Shown piece by piece: positions 6,209-60,858 of a stretch of 64,000 bases of DNA; position 1 is the first letter of the stretch; every line of letters begins with the position of its first letter. The DNA is taken from assembly GCA_965249525.1 (NCBI GenBank), contig OZ252237.1:1413705-1477704 (forward strand), read 5' to 3'. Below the pieces are notes generated by a model, which searched no databases, was not told where the DNA came from, and worked only from the letters and a program-made list of their open reading frames with translations. The stretch is from a bacterium. GTDB taxonomy: Bacteria > SAR324 > JACQKK01. A program made the position numbers and the translations under genes.

Positions 6209-8506
6209 ATGAAAACACCCGCAGCCCAGCTAGCCGACATACAGCCCAGTCCGCATTCCAGCAAATCCCTGGCATCTTCCTTACCAAAATTTGCAAGTCC
6301 TGATGCCGCCCCAAGTGGTGCAGCTGAAGATAGCAGCCCGAAACAAAAACCACGCAGCCAGCAATTTTCTCGCCTCAAACAACATGCCCACAACTTAAAG
6401 ACCTTGCGGCAAGACATCTTGCAGCACCACAGCAAGGCCGGTTCTCGCCGCAAAAAGATGCTGCTGCGCGCCTTGATGGACGCCCGCCACGGTCATCGCA
6501 GACAATGGAGGCATTCGGGCGAACCTTACATCCTGCATCCCATGCGGGTAGCCCTAATGACTGCCAAGGCCGGACTGGATGTGGAATCCACCATCGTTGC
6601 TTTGCTGCATGACCTGATTGAAGATACCGAATTTACCAAAGCACAAATGCAGCAAACTTACGGCAATTGGATTGCCGACATGGTGGAAGGACTCACCAAG
6701 GTGTACCAGGTCAATCAAAGCGATGGGGTGCATACGCTGCCGGTGTTTGCCACCTATCGTCGCCTGATTTCACAAACAGTGCGAGATATCCGCACCCTGC
6801 AAGTGAAGTTATTTGACCGCCTAGACAATATGCACGACTTGACACCACTGCCCAGAAACAAACAGCGCAGCATCAGTCGCGAAACTTGGGGCGTGTATGT
6901 GCCTATGGCTGAACGTTTGGGGATGCAAAATTTAGCAGAAGAATTAACCACCCTGGCTTTTTCTCATCTGTATCCGCTGCGATACACAAAAACCCTCGCC
7001 TGGCTGAAAGACAAACAAAAAGAAGAGACCATGAAAACCCAGGCCCTGTGTGGACTGCTGAAAAAAGAACTGCAGCCTGTGCTAAAGAATTTCACCTTTG
7101 TTGCTCTTTATCAGCACATCTCAGAATTTTTCAGCCAAGAACAACTTCCTGCCCGCAGCTTTAAGGGTGTGGAAATTATCGTCCCCAATGCCCAAAGCTG
7201 CTACAAAGCACTAGGACGACTGCACATGCGCTTTCGCGTGGTACCCATTAGCATTCGCGACTATATCAGCAATCCGCTGCCCAACCACTATCAGGGCTTG
7301 CACTCTGAACTGTTCATCGGTGGTGAACAGGTATTTTTCCGCATTGTGTCTTTTCAAATGCGACATATCAACCAACGAGGCATCTTGGAGGGTTGGAAGG
7401 GCAGCAAGCAAGAACTGGCACATTACTACACCAGCTACCTGGAAATGCTGGAACATTACCAAGAAGACAACCTGCGCATGGAAGATGTGCTGCGTTATGC
7501 TCGCATGGACACTCTGCAGGTATTTACCCCCAAAGGCGAATTACGCACTTTGCCAGCGGGGGCCAGCGTTTTGGATTTTGCTTTTGCTATCCATACAGAT
7601 TTGGGACTGCACTGCTGCGGCGCACGTATTGGCGAACGTCGTACAGGTCCATTTGAGATTTTGTCTGATGGAGAAGTGGTGGAAGTTCTCACCCGTACCG
7701 ACAACCTCCCCAGAACCTCCTGGCTGCAGCATGTACGCACTACCCGCGCCAGGCTGGCTATTCGCCGCTGGCTTAATACCTGCGCAGACCGCAATGCACG
7801 CATCCTGGGACGGCAACGCATCCAAGCCATCCTCAAACATGCCCTTCCCCAAGGTCCCACCCTAACAACCCGTCGCAATTTCTTAAAAGCACTACAAGAT
7901 GAAGAACTTGACCTTAGATCCTTCTACTTCCGGGTGGGTGCAGGAAAATTAGATGCCCGTGCCTTCTTCATCAAACACCAACTCTTTCCTCAAACCCAAC
8001 TTAAACCTCTTCAATCAGAAAAAAGCTCCCGCTGGAGAAAATGGTTCCAAAAACCCCACACCATATCACAACCCCAACTCCAACTAGGACACAACCCTGA
8101 AGCCTTAAACTTCATCCACCTGGCTACCTGCTGCCTTCCCCTGCCGGGAGACGATGTAACCGGCTACCAACAAGAACGGCAGCTCACCCTCCATCGCAAT
8201 AATTGCAAACAAGTCCCCGCCATTCCTCCCCAAAACCGCATCAGCGTCTCTTGGCAAAGCTTTGATAACAACCCCACCCCCCTGCTGCGCATCCGAACCT
8301 GGGAAGATAAACCAGGACAACTCTTCTTCATTATCCGCGTGATGCGAGACCTGCAAGTCAACATCAACAGCATCCAGCTAGCCCCCAACAGACCCACGGA
8401 TATTAACTTGCAGTTAGCCCCCATCTCCTTAAAGCAATTCCGCAACGTCATTCAACGCCTGCGCTCCCTCAAACCCGTCAAAGAAGTACGCATGTCTGCC
8501 TTTTAA
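6209..8506 (+). CDS. RelA/SpoT-family bifunctional (p)ppGpp synthetase/hydrolase with a low-complexity N-terminal extension
   Basis: 765 aa. HD hydrolase motif (HPMRVAL...LLHDLIEDT), synthetase-domain region (DYISNPLPNHYQGLHSE), TGS domain (VFTPKGELRTLPAGASVLDFAFAIHTDLG) and a C-terminal ACT-like region. The first ~90 aa are S/P/A/K-rich. Confidence 0.85.
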   Translation: MKTPAAQLADIQPSPHSSKSLASSLPKFASPDAAPSGAAEDSSPKQKPRSQQFSRLKQHAHNLKTLRQDILQHHSKAGSRRKKMLLRALMDARHGHRRQWRHSGEPYILHPMRVALMTAKAGLDVESTIVALLHDLIEDTEFTKAQMQQTYGNWIADMVEGLTKVYQVNQSDGVHTLPVFATYRRLISQTVRDIRTLQVKLFDRLDNMHDLTPLPRNKQRSISRETWGVYVPMAERLGMQNLAEELTTLAFSHLYPLRYTKTLAWLKDKQKEETMKTQALCGLLKKELQPVLKNFTFVALYQHISEFFSQEQLPARSFKGVEIIVPNAQSCYKALGRLHMRFRVVPISIRDYISNPLPNHYQGLHSELFIGGEQVFFRIVSFQMRHINQRGILEGWKGSKQELAHYYTSYLEMLEHYQEDNLRMEDVLRYARMDTLQVFTPKGELRTLPAGASVLDFAFAIHTDLGLHCCGARIGERRTGPFEILSDGEVVEVLTRTDNLPRTSWLQHVRTTRARLAIRRWLNTCADRNARILGRQRIQAILKHALPQGPTLTTRRNFLKALQDEELDLRSFYFRVGAGKLDARAFFIKHQLFPQTQLKPLQSEKSSRWRKWFQKPHTISQPQLQLGHNPEALNFIHLATCCLPLPGDDVTGYQQERQLTLHRNNCKQVPAIPPQNRISVSWQSFDNNPTPLLRIRTWEDKPGQLFFIIRVMRDLQVNINSIQLAPNRPTDINLQLAPISLKQFRNVIQRLRSLKPVKEVRMSAF

Positions 8507-41949: not shown

Positions 41950-43146
41950 TTAAGCGGGGGAGACATCGGTCAGTGCGGCCAGTCCTGGAAGGATTTTCCC
42001 CTCTAGAAATTCCAAGCTGGCGCCACCACCGGTAGAGACATGGGTAACTTGCTTAGCCAAGCCCATTTGGCGAATAGCAGCCACGGAATCACCCCCACCC
42101 ACCACAGTGGTGCCATTAGAGATTGCCATGGCTTTGGCAATAGCCAATGTCCCCTCAGCAAAGGCTGGTTGCTCAAACACTCCCATGGGACCGTTCCAGA
42201 GTATCAGTTGGGCGCGTGAGATGCTGTTGGTGTACGCCAAACGGGTGGTGGGACCAATATCCAGCCCCATCATGCCTTGGGGAATATCCACCCCACAGAC
42301 AATAGCTTGCTCGGAGGCCTCCACAGCAGGAGCAACCACATGATCTAGCGGCAACAACAATGACTTCCCCTGTGGGCCGCATTCTGCCAACAATTCCGCA
42401 GCCAAGCCAAGTTGCTCTTCTTCCACCAACGATTTTCCCACGCCCTTGCCTTGTGATTTGAGAAAAGTGTATGCCATAGCTCCACCGATCATCACGGTAT
42501 CCACTTTCGCCAACAAAGCCCGAATGACGCCTATCTTGTCAGACACTTTTGCTCCCCCCAAAATAGCTATGGATAGCTTCTTGCGGCGTTTTTGGAATAT
42601 TCCGTGTAAAAATTGTACTTCCTGCGCAATCAGCAAGCCGCAGGCAGCCTGCTTAAAACAGCGCGGCAGGGCATCGGTAGAGGCATGGGCGCGATGCAAT
42701 ACCCCAAAAGCATCGCTTACGAAAATATCTCCCAATTCTGCCAACTGACGGGCAAATTGTTTATCGTTGGCAGTTTCACCCGCATGAAAACGCAGGTTTT
42801 CTAACAGCAGTACCTGGCCAGGCTGCAAACTTTCCACCGCTTCCTTGGCTTTTGAACCCACTGTGTGAGCACAAAAACCTACCTCTTGCTGCAACAAATC
42901 TCCCAGGGACTCAGCCACCGGTCTCAGCGAGTACTTCTCCACCCGCTCCCCCTTGGGACGCCCCAAATGCGATATCAGCACCAGCCTCCCTTCCTGCTGC
43001 AAAATGTGCCGAATGCTGGGCAGCACACCAACAATGCGGGTGTTATCGCTTACCTGTCCTTTTTCATCCAGCGGGACATTGAAGTCCACCCGCATTAAGA
43101 TCCGTAGACCTTGCATTTCCAATTCTGTTATATAAAGCTTATTCAC
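41950..43146 (-). CDS. pgk: phosphoglycerate kinase
   Basis: 398 aa. N-terminus ...LRILMRVDFNVPLDEKGQVSDNTRI and C-terminal STGGGASLE. Confidence 0.9.
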   Translation of the reverse strand: MNKLYITELEMQGLRILMRVDFNVPLDEKGQVSDNTRIVGVLPSIRHILQQEGRLVLISHLGRPKGERVEKYSLRPVAESLGDLLQQEVGFCAHTVGSKAKEAVESLQPGQVLLLENLRFHAGETANDKQFARQLAELGDIFVSDAFGVLHRAHASTDALPRCFKQAACGLLIAQEVQFLHGIFQKRRKKLSIAILGGAKVSDKIGVIRALLAKVDTVMIGGAMAYTFLKSQGKGVGKSLVEEEQLGLAAELLAECGPQGKSLLLPLDHVVAPAVEASEQAIVCGVDIPQGMMGLDIGPTTRLAYTNSISRAQLILWNGPMGVFEQPAFAEGTLAIAKAMAISNGTTVVGGGDSVAAIRQMGLAKQVTHVSTGGGASLEFLEGKILPGLAALTDVSPA

Positions 43147-43437
43147 AACATTCCTTTCTCGTCCTCATATGGATACCATTACAAAAAAACAGGCAATAAC
43201 ACTGCAATAAAGCTATAATAACGCTTTCAAGGCGGAATCTTTCAAAATCTGATACATCCTCACCGCCTTATCTTTATAGCCCATTGATGGCTTTTACCCC
43301 TCTATCATACCTGCACTATGCCCACAAACCTCCTAGCAGCAAAAAATCCTGTCTCGCTTAAAACATCAGCCAATCTCCTAAAACAAAAGGGGCCCCAGGT
43401 GCCATCCCAGCCGCAGCCCCAATTGTCTCACTTCTTA

Positions 43438-44373
43438 ATGAACAAGCAGTCGTCTGTCCCTTTACACGTACAGCTAAAAGAACAAATCCGTTACGCCATC
43501 CTCAACAACAGCTACCGTCCAGGAGAATTACTGCCCTCCATCCGCGAACTCACAGCACAACTGGGCATTCATCGCAATACAGTACATCGGGTGTATCTGG
43601 AACTTCAAGCCAGCGGATTGTTGATATCACTGCCAGGAAAAGGAGTCTGTGTCAGCGAAAATCTTGCCCATCCCATCTCCCGACCCGAACTGCACCGATT
43701 GGACCAACTGATTGAAGGTTTCTTTGATGAAGCCAACACCCTGGGAATTAATGCCATCACCCTCAGTCGACTGACAGAACAAAAGGCTGCAGACCACGAC
43801 ATCCGTAAGCCCATCGCTGCTTTTGTGGAGTGCACCGAGCACCAATCCCAACAAATGTCAAAAACTCTCTCAGAACATTTGGGCATTCACGTACAACATG
43901 TGCTCTTGGAAAACCTGCGCCTGCATCCAACAGGTTTAAGCACCCACCTAAAACATGTCATCACCAGTGTTTTTCACTATGACGAAGTCACTACCCTCTT
44001 ACATCAGCAGCAACGTCGTATTCATGCCCTTACCTTTCAGCTGCATCCTGCCAGCAAAGAACAACTGAGCATCATAGACGCCAAACTCTCGCTGATTTTC
44101 ATTTGCCATGATGCCAACACAGAAGAAGTCATCGGCAAAGAAATACAAGATGCCTCCCCCGCCAACATCTCTTTTAATTGTGCCAATTTGGAAGCCCCCG
44201 AGCATGCCTTGGAATTGCTAAAAAAATCCCAGGTGGTGGCCATAACCGAGCCTGCCATCCCCTTTTGCATCAAACACTGCACCCCTCAGCAGCAATTGAT
44301 TGAACTGCATTTCTCCTTGGGACATCCCTCAGTGGAAAAGGTGGCTGGTATGCTCTTGTACAAGCCCTTTTAA
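43438..44373 (+). CDS. GntR-family transcriptional regulator with an uncharacterised C-terminal domain
   Basis: N-terminal winged HTH LPSIRELTAQLGIHRNTVHRVYLELQASGLL. Start set at MNKQSSVPLHVQL. Confidence 0.6.
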   Translation: MNKQSSVPLHVQLKEQIRYAILNNSYRPGELLPSIRELTAQLGIHRNTVHRVYLELQASGLLISLPGKGVCVSENLAHPISRPELHRLDQLIEGFFDEANTLGINAITLSRLTEQKAADHDIRKPIAAFVECTEHQSQQMSKTLSEHLGIHVQHVLLENLRLHPTGLSTHLKHVITSVFHYDEVTTLLHQQQRRIHALTFQLHPASKEQLSIIDAKLSLIFICHDANTEEVIGKEIQDASPANISFNCANLEAPEHALELLKKSQVVAITEPAIPFCIKHCTPQQQLIELHFSLGHPSVEKVAGMLLYKPF

Positions 44374-44589
44374 GGAAAAACCCCCGCAGCAAAAACCACA
44401 GCAAAAACCTTGTACAAGCATGCCCCATAGAAAGGCTTTCAAGGACAATTGTGGTATATAAGTAATGAACTGCCGCCAGGGAGTTGCTTTTGCTAGGGTA
44501 TTACAAAGAAATTTTACTACTTAACTGACTGAAACAACATATTATTTGGATTTTACAATCTTTTTGGCTACCAGAACAAAATTTTTTTG

Positions 44590-44625
44590 TTTTTTGCCGT
44601 TCAATAGGTTATAATATTTTGGTTG
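44590..44625 (+). promoter_or_regulatory. putative sigma70-type promoter (TTGTTT-17-TATAAT) and RBS for the Panacea-domain gene
   Basis: TTGTTTTTTGCCGTTCAATAGGTTATAAT gives a perfect -10 hexamer with 17-bp spacing. GGAGAAAAGG lies upstream of ATG 44660. Confidence 0.3.
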
Positions 44626-44626
44626 C

Positions 44627-45121
44627 TTGTTTTATACAAATATATTGGAGAAAAGGCTTATGAGTTACAAAGGATACATTATTGCAAATACCATTCTCAA
44701 AATAGGAGATGACAAGGGCATTCCTATGACGCATTTGAAATTACAAAAGATGCTTTTCTTTATGTGTGGATTTTATTTTGCTACACATGATGATAAGCTG
44801 ATTGATGAAGATTTTGAGGTATGGGATTATGGACCTGTTATTCCAGATGTTTATCATAAATTCAAAAAATTTAAGCATGAATATATTACCAATCTTTATC
44901 AAGATAATGATAACAATATAGAAATAATATCAAGAAAAGATGAGAAATTTTATTCTATTGTAGAAAAATACTATGATAAATACATAGTTTTAGGCGAATG
45001 GGATATGGTGTACAAAACACATGATATTGGTACTCCCTGGGCGGAAGCAAAAAAGAATAAAGAAACAAAAATACAGCATGAAGATATGAGAAAAACTTTT
45101 AAGGATGAAATTGCTAAATGA
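44627..45121 (+). CDS. Panacea-domain (DUF4065, SocA/PanA-like) antitoxin-type protein, inside the AT-rich islet
   Basis: 164 aa. Core LKLQKMLFFMCGFYFA...DEDFEVWDYGPVIPDVYHKFKKF matches the conserved DUF4065 pattern (LKLQKLLY...FEAW.YGPV.P.VY..FK). Codon usage and base composition are strongly AT-biased versus neighbours. An alternative start at MSYKGY (44660) has a GGAGAAAAGG RBS. Confidence 0.65.
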   Translation: MFYTNILEKRLMSYKGYIIANTILKIGDDKGIPMTHLKLQKMLFFMCGFYFATHDDKLIDEDFEVWDYGPVIPDVYHKFKKFKHEYITNLYQDNDNNIEIISRKDEKFYSIVEKYYDKYIVLGEWDMVYKTHDIGTPWAEAKKNKETKIQHEDMRKTFKDEIAK

Positions 45122-45336
45122 AGCCAGAAATTGTATCCCCAAGTGATGCTACTTTAAAAGAAGCTATGGGCACAAAAACATTAGGAATAGTTTATGGTAT
45201 TATAGAATTAAACGCTGAATCACAACAAAGAATGATAGAGACTATTGTTAGTGAAAAAAGAAAAATTTTTATCTTTATGTTAGTTCTATATTCTATTTTA
45301 ATAATTGCCTTTATCTTCTGTTGTTTTTTCAAGTAA
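45118..45336 (+). CDS. small membrane-anchored protein (72 aa), candidate toxin partner of the Panacea-domain gene
   Basis: ATG overlaps the upstream stop (ATGA). Soluble N-terminal ~50 aa, then one C-terminal TM helix IFIFMLVLYSILIIAFIFCCFF ending in K. Same AT-rich composition. Confidence 0.45.
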   Translation: MKPEIVSPSDATLKEAMGTKTLGIVYGIIELNAESQQRMIETIVSEKRKIFIFMLVLYSILIIAFIFCCFFK

Positions 45337-45473
45337 ATGATTGCGATGATGAAATCCTCATTAACCAGGTTCTTGGAATACTTAAGGATTGAAATCAAAC
45401 CATCAATCAAGAAAGGCTAGCGGACTAAATAGCACCCCTCTTGAGGGCTGGATGAAAACAGGCGGAGGATGAG

Positions 45474-46439
45474 GTGTTGACAGGTGCGCTGCGATTGGGG
45501 ACACGAGGCAGTCGGTTGGCTGTGCTGCAGACACGCTGGGTGGCGTCCCGCCTGCGTGATGCCTGGCCCAAGCTGGATTGTGAGATTTGCGTGTTGGAGT
45601 CGGCAGGAGACAAATTTGCAGCCACATCGGTTGCAGCTTTGCACGCAGGACAAGGGGCGGGGGTTTTCCATAGTGCTTTGGAAAAAGCCTTATTAGCCGA
45701 TGAAGTGGATGTGGTGGTGGCATCATGCAAAGATATTGAGTCAGATTCGCCACAGGGATTGCAATGGTGTGCGGTGGGGGAACGAGAAGAAGTACGGGAT
45801 GTGTTGGTAAGTCAGCACAGGGGGCTGGAACAACTGCCCCCAGGGGCATGCTTAGGCACCAGCAGCCTGCGCAGACAAAGTCAGCTGAGCGGCTGGCGAG
45901 GAGATTTATCGTTCGCCCCCTTGAGGGGCAATGTGAATACACGGGTAGAACATGCACTGAAAGCCAGCAGCGAGGCATGCGATGGGGTGGTGGTAGCAGC
46001 AGCAGGAGTACATCGGCTGGGAATGCAGGCGCACATTACCGATTACATTGATTTGGAAATTCTGCTGCCTGCTCCGGCCCAAGGAGCATTGGCATGCCAA
46101 TACCTTGGGGGACGCAAAGATATTTTGCGCATGCTGGCCCCCCTGGGCAGCGAGGTTGTAGAATGCTGTGTAAGGACAGAACGTCGTTTGCTGGCCAACC
46201 TGAGTGGCGGCTGCTTTGCCCCCGTGGGAGCATTTGCCTGGATAGAAAAGCATCAGCTGCAATTGTGGGGGCGGGTGACATCGCTTGATGGTCAGCAAAC
46301 AGCATCTGCCAGGGCTAAGGGAACCTCCGCAGACTGGCAGCTTTTGGCAAACGAAGTGACTCGCCAATTACGCCAGCAAAATGCCTTAGCCATAATGGCT
46401 GATGCCAGAAAGAGCGTATCAGCAGCCCATCAAAATTGA
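45474..46439 (+). CDS. hemC: hydroxymethylbilane synthase (porphobilinogen deaminase)
   Basis: N-terminus LRLGTRGSRLAVLQT. Conserved Cys for the dipyrromethane cofactor near the C-terminal domain. Confidence 0.85.
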   Translation: MLTGALRLGTRGSRLAVLQTRWVASRLRDAWPKLDCEICVLESAGDKFAATSVAALHAGQGAGVFHSALEKALLADEVDVVVASCKDIESDSPQGLQWCAVGEREEVRDVLVSQHRGLEQLPPGACLGTSSLRRQSQLSGWRGDLSFAPLRGNVNTRVEHALKASSEACDGVVVAAAGVHRLGMQAHITDYIDLEILLPAPAQGALACQYLGGRKDILRMLAPLGSEVVECCVRTERRLLANLSGGCFAPVGAFAWIEKHQLQLWGRVTSLDGQQTASARAKGTSADWQLLANEVTRQLRQQNALAIMADARKSVSAAHQN

Positions 46440-59465: not shown

Positions 59466-59524
59466 CTAATCCATCCAAATGGCATATTCCATATCCACCC
59501 CCACACCAGGTGAACTTCCCCAGG

Positions 59525-60409
59525 CTACTTATGGTGATGATAACTTTGTTCAATCAATTCAAAAACTGCATCCATGTCCTCTTCTTTTTCCAGCTTGACT
59601 TCATAATCACCATTTCCAAAATGTCTTTTGGAATATTTGGTAATCTTATGTGGATCATCTAAGGCACCATTGGGAACATTGAGAACCACCAGGACAGCAG
59701 ATTTTTGTAAAGAGATATTCACAAAATTGGTTACCAGTTTGTAGGTAATATAACTTTTTTTGGGTTCAACTTTAATGGATGAATCAAGTTCAATTATTCT
59801 TTGGCTGATTTCCCCAAACATTTTCTTAATTTTTGGGGGTTTATTGCTGAGGTGATCTTTAATTGTATATTCTTTGGCTGGTTTTTCTTTTTTTTCCTTG
59901 TCAGAAACTTTTTTTGCAGAGGAACTTTCTTGCTGGAATTTTCTATCAAGCCAAAGGATATTGTTTTTGTAAATGACAAATTCCAAAAGCTCTATTTTGA
60001 TATGTGATACTTCATCAGCAGTGTCCCTATCAAATTTATTATAGCTTTTGGCTATGCAAATTATTTTAGGGGCGCTCCAATCAATCTCCTTAATATCCAC
60101 TTTGGCTTGCTGTACCAAAGCCTCAAAATCGGCTTTATGGTCTTTCAACCATCTCAAATAGGAAATGGCTTGATTGATAATACTGCTGTCTTGCTTTTTC
60201 TTATACTCAATAATAACAGGCGTCCCGTCACCCTCAATCCCCAGTGTATCAATGCGTCCATTGGTCGTTTGGTATTCGGAGGCAAGAAAAGTAATATTCA
60301 ATATTTTGCTGAGATTTTTCTCAAAGACATTTTGTATGTATTTCTCAAGCTTAATCTCGGTAGAGGGGATTTTCTTTACAGTGTCATTTTTTTCTATGGA
60401 AAACAGCAT
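59525..60409 (-). CDS. PD-(D/E)xK nuclease-fold protein (NucS/DUF91-like N-domain plus uncharacterised C-domain), inside the AT-rich islet next to tRNA-Ser
   Basis: Start set at MLFSIEKN, because the longer ORF runs into the tRNA. D..E.K core GRIDTLGIEGDGTPVIIEYKK. Lys-rich linker. AT-rich composition unlike its neighbours. Confidence 0.4.
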   Translation of the reverse strand: MLFSIEKNDTVKKIPSTEIKLEKYIQNVFEKNLSKILNITFLASEYQTTNGRIDTLGIEGDGTPVIIEYKKKQDSSIINQAISYLRWLKDHKADFEALVQQAKVDIKEIDWSAPKIICIAKSYNKFDRDTADEVSHIKIELLEFVIYKNNILWLDRKFQQESSSAKKVSDKEKKEKPAKEYTIKDHLSNKPPKIKKMFGEISQRIIELDSSIKVEPKKSYITYKLVTNFVNISLQKSAVLVVLNVPNGALDDPHKITKYSKRHFGNGDYEVKLEKEEDMDAVFELIEQSYHHHK

Positions 60410-60456
60410 ACTATCCCCCCTAAATAAGTTATGAAGATTGCTTGCAGCAGAAAAGG

Positions 60457-60545
60457 CGGAGAGGGCGGGATTCGAACCCGCGGTGCAGATTTCACCACAC
60501 AACAGATTAGCAATCTGCCACTTTCGGCCACTCAGTCACCTCTCC
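60457..60545 (-). tRNA. tRNA-Ser (anticodon GCT)
   Basis: Reverse complement GGAGAGGTGACTGAGTGGCCGAAAGTGGCAGATTGCTAATCTGT...GGTTCGAATCCCGCCCTCTCCG. Long variable arm, anticodon loop TTGCTAA. Confidence 0.8.
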
Positions 60546-60674
60546 ATTGGCCTTAATCTTAAAACAAAACGCCCCCATTCACCAAGTGACAAGAACACCT
60601 TTGTTGGTTTACGAAGGAAATTTTTACCACCAAGCTTCCCGCTAAGCGAACCTGGCATTCCCTTTCCACTCAAG

Positions 60675-60763
60675 CAGAGGGGGGGGGATTCGAACCCCCG
60701 GAGCCCTTTGAAAGGCTCAGCGGTTTTCAAGACCGCCGGTTTCAACCACTCACCCACCCCTCC
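60675..60763 (-). tRNA. tRNA-Ser (anticodon TGA)
   Basis: Reverse complement GGAGGGGTGGGTGAGTGGTTGAAACCGGCGGTCTTGAAAACCGC...GGGGGTTCGAATCCCCC CCCCTCTG. Resembles E. coli serT. Anticodon loop CTTGAAA. Confidence 0.8.
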
Positions 60764-60858
60764 CAGCAAGGTATCGCTATGGCAGCTTGGCTCGTAAGAG
60801 TTGAAGAGGGCACTGCTAAAATGTGTCACAGCCACCAGAGATTGTCAAACTGTTGGGG

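Follow-up and report, generated by a model that had tools for sequence, protein, structure and literature searches.

A candidate PanAT-type toxin-antitoxin cassette in an acquired AT-rich segment between a GntR-family regulator gene and hemC of a SAR324 bacterium

Here, we analyzed a stretch of 64,000 nucleotides (nt) from a bacterium of the SAR324 lineage (assembly GCA_965249525.1, contig OZ252237.1, positions 1,413,705 to 1,477,704 of the forward strand; hereafter the window, from whose first letter all positions are counted), with a focus on a short AT-rich segment that lies between the gene of a GntR-family regulator and hemC. It appears rather probable that this segment is a two-gene toxin-antitoxin (TA) cassette of the PanAT type (type II), inserted horizontally into a GntR-hemC spacer of 73 nt, and that it encodes a Panacea antitoxin together with a peptide of 72 amino acids (aa) acting as a putative membrane toxin. 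What directly supports this reading is the acquisition of the segment, the Panacea identity and fold of the first protein, the coupling of the two genes, the coding likelihood and topology of the small partner, and the same layout in relatives of the first gene. A PanAT-type system had been proposed in a preliminary description of this DNA, and in every part that could be checked computationally the proposal was supported; small membrane toxins have also been published as PanT partners (PMC8832971, PMC10440598).

An AT-rich segment and its empty site in a relative

In 300-nt windows, GC content was 0.27-0.30 over approximately 44450-45400, compared with about 0.50 on both sides, which showed that the AT-rich islet noticed earlier is real. 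The mean GC content of the 64-kb window was 0.501 (standard deviation 0.045), and only one other stretch, at 59.5-60.4 kb, fell below 0.40 over a similar length. The limits of the segment came from a 48-kb metagenomic contig (L081), which was found through a homolog of the GntR protein (P0013, 98% identical) and was collinear with the window at ~96% nucleotide identity across ~13 kb. In this contig the GntR gene is followed by hemC after a spacer of 73 nt. The alignment breaks at 44379/44380 and resumes at 45449/45450, and 42 unrelated nt (positions 6982-7023 of the contig) replace 1,070 nt of the window. Thus, the limits of 44390-45420 given in the preliminary description were close, and the comparison refined them to 44380-45449. 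Because low GC content and an empty site were found in combination, horizontal gain of the segment appears far more likely than its loss from the metagenomic contig. The horizontal acquisition suggested earlier was thereby borne out by evidence beyond composition alone, namely an empty site in a relative of ~96% identity. The edges of the segment (44380-44490, 110 nt, and 45401-45449, 49 nt) had a GC content of 0.46-0.49, close to that of the host, and these outer parts may be diverged host spacer.

With regard to the way of entry, no flanking direct or inverted repeats were detected at 44380 and 45449 in the repeat searches, and the only junction feature was a possible GGA..AAAA microhomology. 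The segment contained no integrase gene, and no tRNA gene was located nearby. Its DNA had no match among plasmids; among phages, the sole match was a stretch of 57 nt from the conserved core of panA (see below) in a Helicobacter rodentium prophage, and an Rfam search of the AT-rich segment returned no match. Two genes only made up the contents of the segment.

A perfect and nearly palindromic 11-nt direct repeat (CTTGTACAAGC) was also observed at the end of the GntR gene (44355-44365) and at the left edge of the segment (44409-44419). It was rejected as a target-site duplication because both copies lie on the left side of the insert.

The Panacea gene and its small coupled partner

Both sequence and structural modeling indicated that the upstream gene, panA, encodes a bona fide Panacea (DUF4065) protein. 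As anticipated in the preliminary description, its product matched PF13274 (SocA_Panacea), with 53.9 bits (gathering threshold 25.7; E=4e-14) over residues 28-127 and profile positions 1-112 of 113. It also matched phrog_1281 in PHROGs (6.6e-33) and the SocA model NF047745 of NCBIfam (92.5 bits, E=2.3e-26), the latter below its equivalog cut-off of 190. The mechanically listed open reading frame (ORF) of this gene spans 44627-45121 (164 aa) from a TTG, and this start was rejected in favor of the ATG at 44660, from whose methionine the homologs align. The database entry P0002 has the resulting 153 aa, and a Shine-Dalgarno-like GGAGA precedes the ATG; thus, the likely gene product has 153 rather than the 164 aa originally assigned.

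An AlphaFold2 model of PanA, built from eight aligned sequences only, reached a predicted local distance difference test (pLDDT) score of 91.4 and a predicted template modeling (pTM) score of 0.88. It comprised seven helices (residues 5-18, 25-42, 62-71, 95-108, 113-121, 126-132 and 140-152) and a beta-hairpin (strands 52-55 and 58-60), an architecture that agrees with the published description of alpha1-alpha7 plus beta1-beta2 (PMC10440598). When the model was searched with Foldseek, viral proteins of ~150 aa in BFVD matched it at template modeling scores of 0.66-0.71, one of them being named Panacea, and no similar solved structure was found in PDB by sequence or by Foldseek. The invariant motifs LKLQK, W55..G58-P59 (within WDYGP) and H121 were all kept. 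H121 was invariant in the eight-sequence alignment, and Y57 was Tyr in seven of the eight sequences and Phe in one. In Bartonella PanA, the essential residues are Y56, adjacent to beta2, and H120, where alpha5 ends, and their mutation abolishes neutralization of a membrane toxin (PMC10440598). In our model, alpha5 ends with H121 and Y57 immediately precedes beta2. Both residues thus match the Bartonella pair in their place in the structure, a correspondence that was not read from a sequence alignment with that protein. No additional N- or C-terminal domain (HTH, PAD1, ZBD or Phd-C) was detected, and judged by its sequence the protein falls into the group termed standalone Panacea, whose members neutralize the toxin with the domain itself (PMC10440598). 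Relatives of PanA were sought among 5.8 billion protein clusters, in 185,579 species genomes and in a metagenome collection. The closest ones were 37-39% identical and came from Helicobacter pylori, a SAR324 metagenome-assembled genome and metagenomic contigs. In addition, 150 phage records carried relatives, including annotated PanA/PanT in Escherichia coli prophages.

The start codon of the second gene, candidate panT, overlaps the stop codon of panA, and the ATGA overlap (-4 nt) that had been described was confirmed in the sequence. Translational coupling through ATGA seems more likely for the small ORF than initiation from the weak AAGGA ahead of it. When the downstream 328 nt were shuffled, a frame of at least 72 codons from ATGA arose in 0.18% of mononucleotide and 0.30% of dinucleotide shuffles, and one from any start at -20 to +40 nt in 0.5-0.7%. 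An ORF of this length is improbable by chance (0.002-0.007), since stop codons are frequent in DNA of ~28% GC.

Because an equally long ORF is present on the opposite strand, the two were compared with a codon log-odds model trained on 57 low-GC genes for PanA and its partners (9,217 codons). True 72-codon pieces of the training genes scored +0.42 +/- 0.18, in comparison with -0.21 +/- 0.19 (maximum 0.23) for 145 open wrong-frame runs of at least 40 codons; panA itself scored +0.43. The small ORF on the + strand scored +0.19 as a whole. Its residues 1-48 reached +0.52, above every open wrong-frame run, and its transmembrane part -0.49, a low value that is expected because the training genes code for soluble proteins. 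The antisense ORF scored -0.16 (-0.34 for its unique part), which is within the distribution of open wrong-frame runs, and it was rejected as a gene. Based on these scores, and on the TTG start of the antisense ORF without a ribosome-binding site, we consider it likely that the + strand ORF is the gene and the antisense ORF its shadow. A further ORF of 27 codons (MIAMMKSSLTRFLEYLRIEIKPSIKKG, 45337-45420), which abuts the TAA of the small ORF (TAAATG), was examined as a third gene and rejected, its length being compatible with chance.

Residues 1-49 of the small protein are hydrophilic and charge-balanced (seven K/R and seven D/E) and end in KRK, whereas residues 50-71 form one very hydrophobic stretch of 22 residues, followed by a terminal K. 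AlphaFold2 modeled the peptide as a continuous single helix over residues 9-71 (pLDDT 83.6). By the positive-inside rule, the N-terminal part should be cytoplasmic, and the product is predicted to be tail-anchored by a single C-terminal transmembrane helix; the helix had already been noticed in the preliminary description and was located here at residues 50-71.

The absence of a recognizable family, also noted earlier, held across all searches made with the 72-aa ORF. When 1.84 billion representative proteins were scanned in full with HMMER (E <= 0.001), the query itself was the only match, as it was in a word-index search. Pfam, NCBIfam, PADLOC and PHROGs offered no family, the sole match being the CrgA transmembrane region at E=0.13. 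With phmmer, no match was found among all ORFs in 160 loci of PanA relatives or among 26 membrane-type partners of these relatives (both described below). BLASTP gave no alignment with the E. coli PanT of cluster T3 at E <= 100, and no similarity to the 71-aa partner in H. pylori or to the partner in the metagenomic locus L086.

We then surveyed the partners of PanA relatives in 160 loci (L006-L165), the top 80 from genomes and the top 80 from metagenomes, a partner being a same-strand ORF whose start is no more than 40 nt before or after the PanA stop. Such a coupled downstream partner was present in 127 of the 160 loci, often with an overlap of -1, -4, -8, -11 or -14 nt, and was lacking in the other 33. 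Thus, the coupled two-gene arrangement proposed for the window is the rule, with panA first. A single soluble family of ~135 aa, which ends in ...F(I/V)D....YKH and has no Pfam match, accounted for 79 of the 127 partners and presumably represents a large PanT cluster that lacks annotation. Fourteen partners (244-372 aa) had a coiled coil and C-terminal transmembrane helices, which fits the description of the T4 PanT of Helicobacter, and two were YafQ-like RNases. About a dozen partners of 116-195 aa combined a charged N-terminal half with transmembrane helices at the C-terminus and fell into many small clusters or singletons unrelated to one another; the partner in L086, the closest metagenomic PanA relative, is of this type. 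In total, ~25 of the 127 partners had a charged N-terminal part followed by strongly hydrophobic C-terminal segments, and they fell into at least 10 unrelated clusters. An unrelated membrane partner tightly coupled behind panA is therefore the normal layout in this branch. Among the loci surveyed, the peptide of the window was the shortest membrane partner and the only one below 116 aa with a transmembrane helix.

In H. pylori Arg-34UA2 (L024, 4010-4641), a PanA of 39% identity is ATGA-coupled to a non-membrane ORF of 71 aa without a family, possibly a piece left over from a toxin gene that decayed.

Proposed mechanism and alternative readings

The favored reading fits what is known about PanAT systems. 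Kurata et al. (2022) described 1,268 putative PanAT loci, whose toxins formed 88 clusters that were mostly annotated as "hypothetical", and the antitoxin-first order prevailed (943 loci vs 325); many predicted PanTs were small peptides with transmembrane helices, and among nine validated pairs three had membrane-acting toxins and PanA-PanT complexes (type II) were shown (PMC8832971). More recently, Ernits et al. (2023) showed that a standalone Panacea neutralizes a membrane toxin via the unstructured N-terminus and a short pre-transmembrane helix of the latter (PMC10440598). By analogy, both proteins of the window would be translated from one mRNA by ATGA coupling, and PanA would bind the cytoplasmic N-terminal part and the juxtamembrane helix of the peptide through its Panacea core (Y57 and H121). 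This binding would keep the peptide from inserting or oligomerizing in the inner membrane. If PanA were lost or inactivated, e.g., through proteolysis, a phage cue or loss of its gene, the peptide, then free, could depolarize or permeabilize the membrane and growth would stop. Toxicity, direct binding and the trigger are the parts of the mechanism that we infer. In its strongest form, the proposal is that the 72-residue peptide, made of one cytoplasmic and one transmembrane helix, is a genuine toxin and the smallest PanT of our analysis, that a bare Panacea neutralizes it, and that its gene is unique to the lineage, either by origin or because divergence has removed any recognizable similarity; in our opinion, this form has slightly less than an even chance of being correct.

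Several observations weigh against a toxin-antitoxin pair. The transmembrane helix of the small ORF is encoded by a T-rich tract, whose codon score is low and which the antisense ORF of the same length overlaps. As no homolog was found, there is no support for the partner from conservation, from the ratio of nonsynonymous to synonymous substitutions (dN/dS) or from co-occurrence. With 72 aa and one helix, the peptide is smaller than the PanT of E. coli (182 aa) and all 26 membrane-type partners surveyed (116-372 aa). Furthermore, about half of DUF4065 proteins occur outside TA-like pairs, and an architecture shared by at least two species was one of the published criteria for PanAT loci (PMC8832971), whereas here the partner is a singleton and no PanA relative exceeded 39% identity. 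Most of these points would be accounted for if PanA were solitary or its partner decayed, so that the 72-codon ORF encodes a small membrane protein that does no harm, or is a degraded toxin gene or a remnant without coding function, and PanA is, e.g., an orphan antitoxin, an "anti-addiction" factor or a phage-derived protein of other function. The 33 relatives' loci without a coupled downstream ORF and the fragment-like 71-aa ORF of H. pylori are also in line with this possibility. However, 72 open codons from ATGA are improbable in DNA of 28% GC (0.002-0.003), the 48 codons of the hydrophilic part have scores typical of true genes and above all open wrong-frame runs, and KRK, a 22-residue helix and the end follow one another as in a proper tail-anchored protein; in addition, the insert of just 1.07 kb is otherwise empty. 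On balance, a solitary PanA appears rather unlikely. Even less can be said for a real second gene on the - strand that is convergent with panA and has the + strand ORF as its shadow. Its equal length (72 aa) and the 145-nt overlap are what suggest it, and they are outweighed by the TTG start without a Shine-Dalgarno sequence, the codon scores given above, a low-complexity, K/I-rich product and a terminator-like hairpin that lies upstream of this ORF and not downstream. Since partners of PanA relatives also sit on the same strand as panA, such a gene is highly improbable.

Two further alternatives accept both genes and concern what they do. The cassette might serve chiefly as a phage-defense (abortive-infection) module, which would be compatible with the favored mechanism and touches only its role. 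Panacea has been proposed to act as a sensor, and RosmerTA, a related membrane-depolarizing TA system, defends against phage (PMC10440598); the match of PanA to phrog_1281 and its relatives in phage records point in the same direction. On the other hand, PADLOC gave no model match except a weak one to a DarG domain, and the flanks consist of housekeeping genes rather than a defense island, which makes a primary role in defense improbable. Alternatively, PanA might resemble SocA of the type VI system SocAB, i.e., act as a ClpXP adaptor that delivers its partner for degradation instead of sequestering it, in accordance with the name of the Pfam domain and with the SocA antitoxin model as its best NCBIfam match. 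Nevertheless, the 92.5 bits of this match are far under the equivalog cut-off, a 72-aa membrane peptide without a family is unlike the soluble replication toxin of the SocB type, and PanAT pairs tested in the literature form direct complexes (PMC8832971). This was the least probable of the alternatives considered.

If the PanAT reading is correct, the pair would offer a minimal system for studying how one antitoxin fold recognizes unrelated membrane toxins, and a TA cassette would be wedged 24 nt upstream of hemC, an essential gene of heme biosynthesis. Should the peptide be toxic and PanA rescue growth, one more unrelated and unusually small Panacea partner would be added, and the compact pair of 153 and 72 aa would lend itself to structural work. 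The locus also documents the recent gain of a candidate TA cassette with an empty-site control in an uncultured SAR324-like marine lineage, with no integrase, repeats or phage genes. Current concepts remain unchanged, as PanA is known with dozens of unrelated and mostly unannotated partners, small membrane toxins included. Systems of this kind and partners of this design have already been described; what is new is the lineage-unique, unusually small putative toxin and its cleanly documented recent acquisition.

Genomic context and comparison with known systems

The positions of the features discussed here are listed in Table 1. With respect to transcription, the dedicated promoter of the preliminary description (TTGTTT-17-TATAAT) is present as a sequence, but statistical support for it was absent. 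Its -35 element agrees with the consensus at three of six bases, the promoter scan did not call the site, and promoter-like sites were not enriched in the region (7 found vs 5.0 +/- 2.0 expected). By our own estimate, a perfect TATAAT in ~280 nt of DNA with 27% GC is roughly a coin-flip by chance. An antisense promoter-like site (45158-45130) was also within chance expectation. Downstream of the small ORF, no intrinsic terminator was found on the + strand before hemC. The hairpin at the right edge of the segment is not a + strand terminator because its T-run is on the - strand only, and the 3' region folded no better than shuffled sequences (z = 0.6). Thus, the cassette is not fully the self-contained module that had been suggested. 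As no + strand terminator precedes hemC, whose start is 24 nt on, the cassette may be read through from the GntR gene into hemC, and it is probably co-transcribed with hemC.

Table 1. Positions of the cassette, its sequence elements and neighboring features in the window.
Feature	Position	Strand	Size or sequence	Remarks
GntR-family regulator gene (host)	43318-44373	+		PF00392; 98% identical protein in L081
Acquired segment	44380-45449		1,070 nt	GC 0.31; L081 collinear to 44379 and again from 45450
AT-rich core	44491-45400			GC 0.27-0.29
Possible promoter	44587-44592 and 44610-44615	+	TTGTTT-17-TATAAT	44 nt ahead of panA ATG; leader ~37 nt
Shine-Dalgarno-like site of panA	44647-44651	+	GGAGA	8 nt ahead of ATG 44660
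panA, standalone Panacea (DUF4065), presumed antitoxin	44660-45121	+	153 aa	
Weak Shine-Dalgarno-like site of small ORF	45101-45105	+	AAGGA	Within panA 3' end; 12 nt ahead of small ORF ATG
Candidate panT, ORFan	45118-45336	+	72 aa	ATG 45118-45120 overlaps panA TGA 45119-45121 (ATGA)
Predicted C-terminal membrane anchor	45265-45333	+	IFIFMLVLYSILIIAFIFCCFFK	Kyte-Doolittle 19-residue mean 3.05 from residue 50
Antisense ORF (rejected as a gene)	45192-45410	-	72 aa	TTG start without Shine-Dalgarno; shares 145 nt with small ORF
Short GC hairpin	45434-45448		ACCCCTC TTGA GAGGG-like	Right edge; T-run on - strand only
hemC, porphobilinogen deaminase gene (host)	45474-46439	+		PF01379 and PF03900; junction alignment
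Single gene of second AT-rich islet	59528-60409	-	~294 aa	DUF5655 domain, E=1.8e-12
tRNA-Ser(gct)	60455-60545			Beside second AT-rich islet
tRNA-Ser(tga)	60674-60764			Beside second AT-rich islet

The hemC gene has a GGAGG and a GTG start, 24 nt beyond the insert, and pgk is located further upstream of the GntR gene. Names on homologs of the GntR protein include SAR324 cluster bacterium and Candidatus Lambdaproteobacteria. In two more distant relatives (L082 and L083, GntR 58% identical), comparison with 41950-46439 of the window showed that the order pgk-GntR is kept and is then followed by the flagellar export genes fliI, fliH and fliF, not by hemC. The GntR-hemC junction is therefore specific to the close lineage of the window. 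Elsewhere in the window, a second AT-rich islet (59500-60430, GC 0.32-0.37 vs 0.50) adjoins two tRNA-Ser genes. The product of its one gene also had a NucS_C/PD-(D/E)xK-like match below threshold (22.8 bits vs 24), and the gene is possibly another acquired nuclease-like or defense gene, here at a tRNA site.

In layout, the cassette agrees with PanAT loci. Kurata et al. searched for partners within 100 nt on the same strand in operons of up to three genes; here the overlap is -4 nt and the insert holds two genes. The design of T3, T4 and T12 toxins, a charged or hydrophilic N-terminus followed by C-terminal transmembrane helices, is also that of the 72-aa ORF, in which a single such helix is predicted. 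No sequence homology to the membrane PanT clusters T3 and T4 was found, and T12 was excluded via the global search only. The locus differs from SocAB in that NF047745 was matched with 92.5 bits vs 190 and the partner has no family, and from DarTG in that neither a macrodomain nor DarT was found. Residues 15-103 of PanA weakly resembled the C-terminal, non-macrodomain part of DarG (PADLOC E=0.0012, profile positions 175-254 of 329; NCBIfam E=0.0022), a similarity which hints that the DarT-binding region of DarG might be Panacea-like.

Among individual systems, the PanAT of Bartonella apis/choladocola BBC0122 (PanA WP_077993240.1, T12/D11) is similar in that a standalone Panacea of ~150 aa is encoded first and is followed by a partner with a charged or unstructured N-terminal part and a C-terminal transmembrane region. 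Unlike that PanT, the peptide of the window has a single transmembrane helix, only 72 residues and no relatives; as none could be detected in the global search, it cannot belong to T12. The PanAT of E. coli STEC O31/Stx-type prophages (T3; phage PhiR47_1, PV340566.1) also has panA first, with a PanA 30% identical to ours, and its PanT, a validated membrane-depolarizing pore-former, shares the design of an acidic N-terminus and C-terminal transmembrane helices. This PanT differs in having 182 aa, two transmembrane segments and a 22-nt gap from panA, and it is carried by a prophage, whereas no phage genes surround the cassette of the window. Genes of T4 partners (Helicobacter sp. 13S00482-2 type; 14 examples in the surveyed loci) are coupled to, and immediately follow, those of PanA relatives in Helicobacter, Campylobacter, Moraxella and Clostridium, and these relatives rank among the nearest to the PanA of the window. 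T4 partners have 244-372 aa, with several transmembrane helices behind a long coiled coil, and no similarity to the 72-aa ORF was seen. Finally, the type I toxins Hok, Fst, TisB and AapA1 resemble the peptide in being tiny single-helix membrane peptides, and membrane depolarization is the presumed action. These toxins are controlled by antisense RNA, whereas the gene in the window, which has no Pfam or Rfam match, is coupled to the gene of a protein antitoxin.

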